The position numbers were made by a program, and so were the translations under genes. Of a DNA stretch of 64,000 nucleotides, positions 33,266 to 39,801 are shown one piece after another; the first letter of the stretch is position 1; each line of letters begins with the position of its first letter. Location of the stretch: NCBI RefSeq assembly GCF_045037415.1, contig NZ_CP173438.1; one strand, given 5' to 3'. The notes below the pieces were generated by a model that saw nothing but the letters and a program-made list of their open reading frames with translations, did not search any database and was not told the origin of the DNA. The stretch comes from Escherichia coli (GTDB lineage: Bacteria > Pseudomonadota > Gammaproteobacteria > Enterobacterales > Enterobacteriaceae).

Positions 33266-35261
<1,996 letters not shown>

Positions 35262-35390
35262 GGCGTTGCCTCATAATCATGTAATGGGATAACAGTTTAC
35301 GAACCCGCTATGGCTTTATATGTGATCTGAATCTCATTAATTATGCAACGCGTGAAACTTACATCAAAAATGCGCGACGCATCGCAAATT

Positions 35391-36517
<1,127 letters not shown>

Positions 36518-36678
36518 TTAATTCGTAAAACGTGCTACCGATCACATTAAGAAATCAGCGCTTATTTTTTCGCTCCCCGGTATTACGCAATGCGCAGCGA
36601 ACTCAGGCATACATCAAGCATAGAGAGGGATTGCAGTTTGCAGCAATCCCTCTTTGCAGACCTTTAATCCGTTGACCG

Positions 36679-36708
36679 GAGGCGCTAACATAGCGCCTCA
36701 TTTTTTTG
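36679..36708 (+). terminator. Intrinsic terminator-like hairpin in dusC leader
   Basis: gaggcgct-aacat-agcgcctc stem followed by ATTTTTTTG, ending 12 nt before dusC ATG. Confidence 0.5.
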
Positions 36709-36719
36709 CGGGTGATGAT

Positions 36720-37670
36720 ATGCGTGTGTTACTGGCTCCGATGGAGGGTGTACTTGACTCTCTGGTGCGGGAATTACTGACCGAAGTTAACGACTACGAT
36801 CTGTGCATCACCGAGTTTGTCCGCGTGGTGGATCAACTGCTGCCAGTAAAAGTCTTTCATCGCATTTGCCCTGAGCTACAAAATGCCAGCCGGACACCAT
36901 CCGGTACGCTGGTTCGCGTGCAGTTGTTAGGGCAGTTCCCACAGTGGCTGGCAGAGAACGCCGCCCGTGCGGTGGAGTTAGGTTCCTGGGGCGTGGATCT
37001 TAACTGCGGCTGCCCGTCGAAAACGGTTAACGGTAGCGGTGGTGGGGCAACGTTACTGAAAGATCCTGAACTCATCTACCAGGGTGCAAAAGCGATGCGC
37101 GAAGCTGTACCGGCGCATTTGCCTGTCAGCGTAAAAGTGCGTCTGGGCTGGGACAGCGGTGAGAAGAAATTTGAAATCGCCGATGCGGTTCAACAGGCTG
37201 GTGCTACGGAGCTGGTAGTACATGGGCGGACAAAAGAGCAGGGTTACCGCGCGGAACATATTGACTGGCAGGCGATTGGCGAGATTCGCCAGCGGCTTAA
37301 TATTCCGGTGATTGCCAACGGTGAAATCTGGGACTGGCAGAGTGCGCAACAATGCATGGCGATCAGCGGCTGCGACGCAGTGATGATTGGTCGCGGGGCG
37401 CTCAATATTCCCAACCTGAGCCGTGTGGTGAAATATAACGAACCGCGAATGCCGTGGCCGGAGGTGGTTGCTTTGCTGCAAAAATATACCCGTCTGGAAA
37501 AGCAGGGCGATACCGGGTTATATCACGTTGCGCGGATTAAACAGTGGTTGAGTTATTTGCGTAAAGAATACGATGAAGCAACGGAATTATTTCAGCATGT
37601 TCGGGTGTTGAATAATTCCCCTGATATTGCAAGGGCTATTCAGGCCATTGATATCGATAAGCTGCGATAA
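36720..37670 (+). CDS. dusC: tRNA-dihydrouridine synthase C
   Basis: Track ORF trimmed to [13 protein letters not shown] (316 aa); Dus-family TIM barrel. Confidence 0.85.
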
Positions 37671-37759
37671 TAGTGGAATCGCAGCTTATCTGAGACAATG
37701 AATCGCTTATTCAGCTTCATCATCTTGTTGCGCTCCTTTCATGAGCTAAGCCACATATT

Positions 37760-37965
37760 GCCACTGGCGCAAGGAGCGCGCAGGGGGAGGACAATCGCCT
37801 CCTCCCCCTGCACCCCCGGGCTCTGGCGAACAAAATCGCCGCTGCGCGGTACCTTCAGCTTATCCCCTTCGGCTACCGGGTCGGGCGCGAGGTAACGTCC
37901 TTGTAAGACGCGCCCTCAGCCCACATCCATGTGGGCTGCCCCGGCCTTCGGGGAACGCTTCAGCG
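37760..37965. repeat. GC-rich dyad-dense intergenic block of unassigned family
   Basis: Successive dyads (gggggagg...cctccccc; cagcccacatccatgtgggctg; ccccggccttcggggaa) in ~200 bp with sharply higher GC than flanks; no credible coding frame. Confidence 0.35.
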
Positions 37966-38057
37966 ATTTTGACGCCACCAACACCGGAGCTGTTTGCAAA
38001 TCAAGTACACAAAATATCTAGTTCCTGACCTGACAACTTATATGCCATATCTGATTT

Positions 38058-38141
38058 TTAAAATATCATCTTAAATACGCCAGTCACCACCAGTAGCCCA
38101 ATCAGGAAAATAATCAATACAGCCCAGAGTATAATTTTCAT
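38058..38141 (-). CDS. yohP: Small hydrophobic membrane protein (27 aa)
   Basis: AAGGAA SD 7 nt upstream of ATG; translation MKIILWAVLIIFLIGLLVVTGVFKMIF; below the ORF-track size cutoff; position between dusC and mdtQ matches K-12 yohP (memory). Confidence 0.55.
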   Translation of the reverse strand: MKIILWAVLIIFLIGLLVVTGVFKMIF

Positions 38142-38364
38142 TGGCGTTCCTTTATTTGTGAGTGCTGAATAAGTATAGGAAAAAACGAAGCCCTTTGCCG
38201 CTATCCATAAACGATTAAGATAAATCGGAAGATATCATTCACTTAGTGTATATTTTTCTGGATATGTCGTTTTATTGCTACTGATGTATTGCCACGCGAA
38301 ACTAAAAAATATATCGCAACACACGGTAATCTCCGCGCACCTTTTCTTACCTGATTATTCCCCC

Positions 38365-39801
38365 ATGAATCGTGATTCCTTTTATCCCGCCATCGCCTGT
38401 TTTCCGCTGTTACTGATGCTGGCCGGGTGTGCACCTATGCATGAAACCCGCCAGGCGTTAAGCCAGCAAACGCCCGCTGCACAAGTTGACACCGCATTAC
38501 CCACGGCGCTGAAAAATGGTTGGCCAGACAGCCAATGGTGGCTGGAGTATCACGATAATCAACTCACTTCCTTAATTAACAATGCACTACAGAACGCACC
38601 GGATATGCAGGTGGCTGAACAGCGCATTCAACTGGCTGAAGCCCAGGCGAAGGCAGTTGCTACTCAGGATGGTCCGCAGATCGACTTTTCTGCGGATATG
38701 GAGCGGCAAAAAATGTCTGCAGAAGGGTTAATGGGGCCGTTTGCTCTGAACGATCCTGCCGCAGGTACGACCGGTCCGTGGTACACCAACGGTACTTTTG
38801 GCTTAACGGCGGGCTGGCATCTCGATATCTGGGGAAAGAATCGGGCAGAGGTAACTGCTCGCCTGGGTACGGTTAAAGCACGAGCGGCGGAACGCGAGCA
38901 AACCCGCCAATTGCTGGCTGGCAGCGTAGCCCGCCTGTACTGGGAGTGGCAAACCCAGGCGGCGTTAAACACTGTCTTACAGCAAATCGAAAAAGAGCAG
39001 AACACCATTATCGCCACCGATCGCCAGCTATATCAGAACGGGATTACTTCTTCAGTTGAAGGTGTGGAAACCGATATTAATGCCAGCAAAACCCGGCAGC
39101 AGCTCAACGATGTCGCGGGGAAAATGAAAATTATTGAGGCACGGTTAAGCGCACTTACAAATCACCAGACAAAGGCATTGAAGCTTAATCCGGTCGCGTT
39201 GCCGAAAGTGGCAAGTCAGCTTCCTGATGAACTGGGGTACTCCTTACTGGCCCGGCGGGCAGATTTGCAGGCGGCGCACTGGTACGTTGAGTCATCGTTA
39301 AGCACTATTGATGCGGCAAAAGCGGCATTTTATCCTGACATCAACCTGATGGCCTTCCTGCAACAGGATGCGTTGCACTTAAGCGATCTGTTCCGTCATT
39401 CCGCGCAGCAAATGGGCGTTACGGCAGGCCTGACGCTACCCATTTTCGATAGTGGTCGTCTTAACGCCAACCTCGATATCGCAAAAGCCGAAAGCAACTT
39501 GTCTATCGCCAGCTACAACAAAGCGGTGGTTGAAGCGGTGAATGACGTGGCGCGGGCAGCCAGTCAGGTTCAGACACTGGCGGAGAAAAACCAGCATCAG
39601 GCGCAAATTGAGCGCGATGCCTTGCGTGTAGTAGGTCTTGCGCAGGCGCGCTTTAACGCGGGCATCATTGCGGGTTCCCGCGTCAGCGAAGCCAGAATCC
39701 CCGCGCTGCGTGAGCGGGCCAATGGCCTGTTATTGCAAGGGCAGTGGCTGGATGCCTCCATTCAACTCACTGGTGCGTTGGGCGGGGGTTACAAACGCTG
39801 A
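38365..39801 (+). CDS. mdtQ: Outer-membrane efflux lipoprotein (OprM/NodT family), apparently intact
   Basis: Track ORF trimmed to MNRDSFYPAIACFPLLLMLAGC lipoprotein signal (478 aa); single uninterrupted frame. Confidence 0.75.
   Translation: MNRDSFYPAIACFPLLLMLAGCAPMHETRQALSQQTPAAQVDTALPTALKNGWPDSQWWLEYHDNQLTSLINNALQNAPDMQVAEQRIQLAEAQAKAVATQDGPQIDFSADMERQKMSAEGLMGPFALNDPAAGTTGPWYTNGTFGLTAGWHLDIWGKNRAEVTARLGTVKARAAEREQTRQLLAGSVARLYWEWQTQAALNTVLQQIEKEQNTIIATDRQLYQNGITSSVEGVETDINASKTRQQLNDVAGKMKIIEARLSALTNHQTKALKLNPVALPKVASQLPDELGYSLLARRADLQAAHWYVESSLSTIDAAKAAFYPDINLMAFLQQDALHLSDLFRHSAQQMGVTAGLTLPIFDSGRLNANLDIAKAESNLSIASYNKAVVEAVNDVARAASQVQTLAEKNQHQAQIERDALRVVGLAQARFNAGIIAGSRVSEARIPALRERANGLLLQGQWLDASIQLTGALGGGYKR

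Follow-up and report, generated by a model that had tools for sequence, protein, structure and literature searches.

The hairpin and T-run before Escherichia coli dusC as a candidate boundary element combining an mhb-operon terminator with a weak dusC promoter

In the window, by which we mean the whole 64,000-nt stretch of Escherichia coli contig NZ_CP173438.1 that was analysed, the start codon of dusC is closely preceded by an intrinsic-terminator hairpin (hairpin 2) and a run of seven T. With somewhat more conviction than doubt, we interpret hairpin 2 together with its T-run as a conserved boundary element on the 5' side of dusC, in which the terminator of an mhb operon, located at this site in other genomes, is nested with a weak sigma-70 promoter belonging to dusC itself. 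This interpretation builds on the structure of the element, on its pattern of conservation across Enterobacterales and on its link to the mhb operon, all of which are directly visible in the compared genomes. The coordinates of the features are collected in the table.

The yohJ-dusC intergenic region comprises 238 bp within the gene order sanA-cdd-yohK-yohJ (minus strand), followed by dusC, yohP and mdtQ, such that yohK and yohJ lie on the minus strand and dusC on the plus strand. An earlier note on this DNA had described two hairpins in the dusC leader, the second being a canonical intrinsic terminator 12 nt before the start codon, and on both points sequence and folding agree. The core of hairpin 1, in which agagggattgc (36624-36634) pairs with gcaatccctct (36643-36653), extends to a total of 14 pairs (36621-36634 with 36643-36656; -21.5 kcal/mol by folding). 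Hairpin 2 consists of 9 pairs, 6 of them G-C, closed by a 3-nt loop (-14.5 kcal/mol by folding), and is directly followed by A36700, T36701-36707, the 12 nt gcgggtgatgat and the ATG at 36720; it thus shows the GC-rich stem of 5-14 bp, the loop of 3-8 nt and the immediately adjoining U-rich tract by which intrinsic terminators are recognised. A terminator scan of 35800-38400 returned it as the sole terminator-like site on the plus strand. Furthermore, the 103-nt leader folds with -44.9 kcal/mol, compared with -24.9 +/- 3.5 for shuffled versions (z = -5.8, with 0 of 200 shuffles as good), and pair probabilities are about 0.8-1.0 for both stems.

Feature coordinates in the window (plus-strand numbering)
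Feature	Position	Strand	Basis
Escherichia-specific filler, 106 nt, at the mhb island site; holds hairpin 1 and the -100 start	36555..36660	+	junctions read, similarity search
Published dusC start site, 100-nt 5' UTR, 21 reads	36620	+	Kim et al. 2012 (PMC3415461), K-12 position 2228507 (-)
Hairpin 1: 14-bp stem, 8-nt loop, 5' end of the -100 transcript, poorly conserved	36621..36656	+	folding
dusC-proximal conserved block	36661..36719	+	aligns across ~65/80 Enterobacterales loci whatever the upstream gene
-35-like hexamer TTTAAT, 17 bp before the -10-like hexamer	36663..36668	+	conservation, top PWM site in the 240-nt intergenic region
Reg-Seq 'repressor' site, protein unidentified there, -35 to -20	36675..36690	+	Ireland et al. 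2020, supplements, coordinates converted
Hairpin 2, intrinsic-terminator stem-loop GAGGCGCTA-ACA-TAGCGCCTC	36679..36699	+	sequence, terminator scan, folding
-10-like hexamer TAACAT spanning the hairpin 2 loop	36686..36691	+	conservation
GC-rich discriminator AGCGCCTC = hairpin 2 3' arm	36692..36699	+	5/8 columns invariant
A + T7: terminator U-tract and predicted initially transcribed T-tract	36700..36707	+	alignment, upp/codBA comparison
Second published dusC start, 10 nt before ATG	36710	+	Reg-Seq gene table 2230395 (reverse strand), citing Raghavan et al. J Bacteriol 2011
dusC, tRNA-dihydrouridine(16) synthase	36720..37670	+	ORF listing, PGAP annotation

The region maps onto K-12 without indels (window position x corresponds to NC_000913.3 position 2230385 + (36720 - x)) and differs from it by five substitutions; among these, the K-12 change of GG to AT at 36678-36679 costs hairpin 2 its outermost pair, so that its stem is 8 bp long there. 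The intergenic region was matched in 5,424 of 5,426 complete E. coli genomes. An Rfam scan of 35000-39000 with E-values up to 10 gave only sub-threshold chance hits, none overlapping the hairpins on the plus strand. As a separate observation, a TTG at 36654 opens a stop-free frame into dusC (36654-37670) that would add 22 codons; PGAP places the start at the ATG at 36720, and the extension is most likely a chance frame, not a real N-terminus.

Considered within this window only, hairpin 2 has no annotated co-directional unit upstream. The earlier note had stated that only the divergent yohJK precede dusC, which is correct here but does not apply to the element as such. About 500 E. coli genomes, O157:H7 included, match only the first 72 nt of the intergenic query (positions 1-72) and carry a 6.2-kb cluster between yohJ and dusC, consisting of a divergent LysR regulator followed by mhbT, a gentisate 1,2-dioxygenase gene, a fumarylacetoacetate hydrolase-family gene, a maleylacetoacetate isomerase gene and mhbM (3-hydroxybenzoate 6-monooxygenase). 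The genes from mhbT to mhbM all point towards dusC, and mhbM adjoins dusC in 492 of the 5,426 E. coli genomes (9%) as well as in relatives, among them most Citrobacter and Klebsiella: it ends 62-200 nt before dusC in Citrobacter, the Klebsiella oxytoca group, Raoultella terrigena, Pseudocitrobacter, Salmonella diarizonae and E. coli E69, the shortest distance of 62 nt being found in Citrobacter and E. coli E69. The O157-type island allele has hairpin 2, the T7 and the last 12 nt before dusC in identical form, with the mhbM stop codon about 120 nt upstream of the hairpin; across island-bearing genomes this distance ranges from 22 to 120 nt, 22 nt being that of the compact form. When the O157-type and the island-less allele are compared, the hairpin 2 5' arm is precisely where their homology sets in, and the compact allele (E. 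coli E69, Citrobacter) also has the preceding CTTTAAT...GACC stretch in common with island-less genomes. The divergent-only context seen in the window is probably a secondary state.

Where other genomes carry the island, the window carries a filler that matches only other Escherichia and resembles neither the mhb island nor any further locus compared. It diverges between Escherichia clades, with a 35-nt indel beside the start site at 36620, and the stem energy of the hairpin 1 contained in it falls from -23.6 through -18.8 and -16.8 to -10.9 kcal/mol between clades and is lost altogether in one locus (L005), with no compensating changes accompanying this degradation. Hairpin 1 is thus lineage-specific filler.

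Several further variants of the locus were encountered. In the O157-like E. coli strain 136 (L003, 6614-6731), an extra segment of about 100 nt lies between the mhbM stop and hairpin 2; it contains the GC-rich repeat-like sequence ggtcccctcgccccttcgggagagggttagggtgagggt, is missing where E. coli E69 and Citrobacter have the compact allele, and swaps the CTTTAAT box for TTGTCT, which is a better -35 match and a form also present in Serratia and Yersinia. Salmonella enterica subsp. arizonae (L038) lacks the conserved block; upstream of its dusC there are remnants of mhbT and mhbR together with an unrelated ORF of 291 aa, which looks like an island caught mid-decay. Moreover, IS200C is inserted exactly between the hairpin 2 T7 and gcgggtgatgat-ATG (equivalent to 36707/36708 of the window) in E. 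coli 09A19CPO004B (NZ_CM151352.1; two loci, L088/L089) and in E. albertii NBRC 107761 (L009), which puts about 0.7 kb between the conserved block and dusC. What appears to be an alternative hairpin before dusC in E. albertii is the right end of IS200; it reads CCTCCGGC-TAT-GCCGGAGG and then ATATTTATTT. The IS200C-bearing genomes offer natural test cases.

How strong the hairpin 2 stem is varies with whether mhbM lies upstream. With a strong stem taken as one of -12 kcal/mol or better, such a stem was found in all 20 mhbM-adjacent loci, in 8 of 23 yohJ-adjacent (divergent) loci, five of these eight being Escherichia, in 3 of 19 loci with other co-directional neighbours and in none of 5 with other divergent ones; ignoring phylogeny, the association of stem strength with mhbM gives a Mann-Whitney p of ~1e-7. 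Within Citrobacter alone, all mhb-positive loci have a stem of about -14.5 kcal/mol, while in the mhb-negative ones a shared G-to-A substitution in the 5' arm weakens it to -5 to -7.5. Most simply read, these patterns suggest a stem that is maintained for terminating the mhb operon and that weakens after the operon has gone. Island-less Escherichia, whose stem stayed perfect or nearly so despite the divergence of the filler, are an exception that descent from the mhb operon does not fully explain.

Conservation extends beyond the stem. Among 80 Enterobacterales dusC loci, the dusC-proximal block aligns in about 65 and displays a common layout, namely a CTTT-type (-35-like) box, 17-18 bp, TAnnAT, nGCGCnTC, T5-8, a Shine-Dalgarno (SD) sequence and the ATG. 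Its upstream neighbour is yohJ (divergent) or mhbM in part of the loci, a DEAD-box helicase gene in Yersinia, Buttiauxella and Erwinia, M24 peptidase genes in either orientation in Enterobacter, Leclercia and Kluyvera, and genes for a MocR-type regulator in Hafnia, an MFS transporter in Rahnella and a 2-hydroxyacid dehydrogenase in Serratia. As the block is found before dusC whatever the upstream gene, it belongs to dusC.

Within an alignment of 54 distinct 52-nt orthologues, the invariant positions resemble those of a promoter. The -35-like hexamer has an invariant first T and an almost invariant second one, with TTGTCT, TTCAAA and TGGAAA among the variants at 17-18 bp; in the -10-like hexamer T1, A2 and T6 are invariant and A5 is kept in at least 90 %, positions 3 and 4 varying freely (AC, CC, CT, TG, TC). 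The 3' arm of hairpin 2 is far more conserved than the 5' arm, and T47-T49 of the alignment, within the T-run, are invariant even in stemless genera. Indeed, the -10, the discriminator and the T-run are kept with little or no stem in Serratia, Yersinia nurmii, Pluralibacter, Kluyvera and most Enterobacter. Covariation of hairpin 2 was absent among the 54 orthologues (81.7 % paired cells, shuffles giving 80.8 +/- 0.4 %); changes in both partners of a pair were seen in only 3 cells, and every departure is a pair broken by a change in the 5' arm. In Hafnia, Y. artesiana and Rahnella the 3' arm can pair with a more distant upstream segment, and some selection for structure may act there.

With an approximate sigma-70 weight matrix (PWM), the block site is the best match within 150 nt upstream in 67 of 73 loci, a ranking that is partly circular because the loci were chosen by the TAnnAT pattern. 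The E. coli site scores 9.8 bits against a shuffled top score of 8.3 +/- 1.6, which is within chance for a single sequence, and its weak hexamers agree with the consensus at only 7 of 12 positions; the case for a promoter therefore is one of conservation. The conservation pattern looks like the footprint of a sigma-70 promoter rather than that of an RNA helix. A sigma-70 holoenzyme SELEX peak has been located in the dusC/yohJ spacer (Shimada et al. 2014). We also considered a sigma-32 reading of the CTTTCAA box, judged by eye against the consensus, and rejected it since neither the spacing nor the -10 fits. Likewise rejected was an SD-sequestering helix, suggested by the fold of the leader, in which the G-rich SD would pair with a conserved C-rich box close to the -35; it was no better than in shuffles (mean z 0.15; p <= 0.05 in 2 of 57 loci).

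One could regard hairpin 2 as a pure relic, that is, a former mhb-operon terminator left after island loss with no promoter in it, dusC being expressed by read-through from upstream starts. The position of the hairpin immediately after mhbM in island-bearing genomes, the decay of the 5' arm in several island-less lineages and the upstream-only start of Kim et al. 2012 (PMC3415461) all agree with this view. However, it leaves unexplained why the -35 T at its fixed 17-bp spacing, TAnnAT and the T-run persist in genera that have neither stem nor mhb genes, and what would drive dusC where an inducible catabolic operon ends 62 nt before it; in addition, a start downstream of the hairpin has been published (36710, Raghavan 2011 as used by Reg-Seq). 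We hence consider a mere relic improbable and favour the nesting of terminator and promoter. With mhbM ending 62 nt before dusC, a housekeeping gene needs a promoter either in that gap or inside mhbM, and the conserved motif fills the gap.

The published 5' ends of dusC disagree with each other. In Kim et al. 2012 (PMC3415461) the start at 36620, 4 nt before the hairpin 1 core (36624), is the only one given for dusC, with none nearer the gene. Reg-Seq (Ireland et al. 2020, PMC7567609) took instead 36710, which falls downstream of hairpin 2, as the only experimentally supported start. The start predicted from the motif, at about 36698-36700, is matched by neither. Conjecturally, U residues added by slippage might cause mis-mapping of a start inside the T-run.

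According to Reg-Seq, which mutagenised the equivalent of 36595-36755, mutations over a single region, 36675-36690, raise reporter expression (automatic call, 36667-36694), and the site was classed as repressor-type in a simple-repression architecture. It is the loop and 5' arm of hairpin 2 that occupy this region. The effect fits relief of a terminator, loss of an operator or a change of a GC-rich promoter spacer alike, and the Reg-Seq result does not separate them; the 5' arm of hairpin 2 is offered as a simple explanation for the 'repressor' footprint.

Taken at face value, the Reg-Seq class for -35 to -20 would make the inverted repeat GAGGCGCTA-N3-TAGCGCCTC a DNA operator, bound by a putative dimeric repressor over the dusC -10; the repeat is indeed a perfect 9-3-9 palindrome whose sequence is conserved across genera without covariation. 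The half-sites, however, are unequally conserved, the left one being lost in many genera while the right one and the T-run stay, which is unexpected for a symmetric operator, and the strength of the stem tracks an upstream mhbM, suggesting a role at the RNA level. Moreover, Reg-Seq identified no protein, and the median E. coli genome has one match to the 241-nt intergenic query, which is weak evidence as a short second copy of the palindrome would escape such a search. An operator thus appears very unlikely to us.

The earlier note had instead proposed attenuation-type control of dusC or a short leader RNA. Spelled out with the published start, transcripts would begin at 36620, mostly end at hairpin 2 as an RNA of ~88 nt with a stem-loop at its 5' end and a terminator at its 3' end, and reach dusC by a regulated read-through that sets its level. 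Part of this is supported: the start at 36620 (21 reads, the sole dusC start of Kim et al. 2012, PMC3415461) does lie upstream of both hairpins, the canonical terminator forms in the leader with the high pair probabilities given above, mutations in its 5' arm raise expression in Reg-Seq (PMC7567609), and the stem is intact in island-less Escherichia. It is the regulated attenuation that found no counterpart, as neither an antiterminator nor a sensor nor a conserved leader was seen. In constrained folding, the best fold that frees the terminator reaches -26.4 kcal/mol against -38.0, i.e. 11.6 worse, and with no comparably stable alternative there is no competing antiterminator. The stretch from 36620 to the terminator (36679) contains neither ATG nor GTG, hence no leader ORF, and no aptamer known to Rfam. 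Furthermore, hairpin 1 and the -100 promoter region are unconserved even within Escherichia, and genomes with no trace of the leader still conserve the terminator hairpin and T-run. Altogether we give regulated attenuation little credence and prefer a boundary element in which termination serves the upstream operon.

The 3' ends near the U-tract of hairpin 2 that the earlier note called for do not appear in the portions considered of the Term-seq tables of Adams et al. 2021, which give no 3' end for dusC, nor any at 22303xx or 22304xx; this is weak evidence, since expression is low and the tables may be incomplete. With no such 3' end in those portions, no Rfam family and an unconserved body, a dedicated short leader RNA finds no support, and neither does an Hfq-type small RNA. 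Literature searches by coordinates and gene-pair names retrieved no paper naming a dusC 5'-UTR or yohJ-dusC intergenic RNA, and one ROSE supplementary file has no dusC entry.

On the divergent side, two observations concern yohJ. A terminator-like hairpin, ATGCCTGCCTGTATGCAGGCAT followed by TTTCATTG, lies on the minus strand at 36405-36426 and ~36399 of the window, 82 nt into the yohJ ORF, and coincides with a 3' end classed as 'internal' (K-12 2230706 (+)) in the Term-seq tables of Adams et al. 2021, as far as considered; so a premature 3' end is documented on the yohJ side of the intergenic region and not at dusC. In addition, AATTGTATGATGAAT at ~36503-36518 on the minus strand matches the published YieP motif atTTGTaTGAcaAAT (PMC7642389) and adjoins the yohJ start of Kim et al. 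2012 (PMC3415461) at 36502; judged by this match, it is probably an operator for the repression of yohJK by YieP.

For the boundary element we propose the following model, in which we infer both the efficiency of the terminator and the use of the promoter-like motif. At the RNA level, hairpin 2 would end transcription arriving from upstream, which in relatives comes from the mhbTDHIM (3-hydroxybenzoate/gentisate) operon; in the present strain, which lacks the island, the only RNAs left for it to end would be weak ones begun in the filler, for example at 36620, and the stopped product of ~88 nt would be an unregulated by-product. At the DNA level, the same 45 bp would carry the dusC core promoter, with the -35 TTTAAT, a 17-bp spacer containing the 5' arm, the -10 TAACAT in the loop of hairpin 2 and the 3' arm as GC-rich discriminator, transcription being predicted to start at A36700 or within the T-tract. 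The RNA helix would have been built later around the -10 of the promoter. Owing to a promoter of its own within the block, dusC would be expressed whether the upstream operon is on or off.

If correct, the model carries some consequences. For annotation it is a warning, as a perfect terminator with divergent-only neighbours mimics an attenuator. Comparison across genomes instead points to a boundary element left behind after the loss of a 6.2-kb catabolic island and nested with the downstream promoter. It also provides a testable promoter model for a gene whose published starts disagree.

With respect to known systems, leader-peptide and riboswitch attenuators such as trp and the pyrBI leader share with dusC a terminator between a mapped start and the start codon, but unlike these, dusC has no antiterminator, leader ORF or aptamer, and its leader is unconserved. 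In promoter layout, dusC is close to codBA and upp, which, like pyrBI, are UTP-sensitive promoters controlled by reiterative transcription and were studied by the Turnbough laboratory (summarised in PMC12709180; dusC is not mentioned in its main text). These promoters and dusC share the succession of a -10, a GC-rich discriminator, an A, a T-run and a G: dusC reads TAACAT-agcgcctc-ATTTTTTTG, codBA TAGAAT-gcggcgg-ATTTTTTG and upp TATAAT-ccgtcg-ATTTTTTTTG (K-12 sequence). By analogy, dusC might have a T-run-start promoter whose output is tuned by UTP across Enterobacterales, either because transcription is reiterative or because the initiating nucleotide is sensed, with the hairpin adding insulation from upstream transcription; slipped poly-U 5' ends would map poorly, which could explain the disagreement between the published 5' ends. 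Nevertheless, the A lies 9 nt after the -10 in dusC instead of 7-8 nt, dusC lacks the G before the A for start-site switching, most other genera lack the A itself, and dusC is not a pyrimidine-supply gene; the T-run fits the pattern of at least 3 T from +2 or +3 only if transcription starts at the predicted A36700. We therefore rate tuning by UTP as quite improbable, even though a real start in the T-tract would, speculatively, link a tRNA uridine-modifying enzyme to pyrimidine nucleotide levels.

The intrinsic terminators of Enterobacteria resemble the dusC element in its GC-rich 9-bp stem, its short loop, the seven U directly after it and its action on one strand only, as well as, in many genomes, in its location behind a co-directional operon, whose last gene (mhbM) has its stop codon 22-120 nt upstream. 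The element differs from them in that the window has no co-directional gene upstream and that the stem is kept by sequence, the 3' arm persisting where no stem forms. Also comparable are overlaps of a terminator with a promoter at operon boundaries, as terminator and promoter-like motif occupy the same ~45 bp between mhb and dusC, an arrangement that would insulate the housekeeping dusC from the inducible mhb operon. Compared with such overlaps, the nesting is unusually tight, with the -10 in the loop and the 3' arm as discriminator of a promoter whose use we deduce from conservation. The boundary element before dusC would be an undescribed example of a recognised type.
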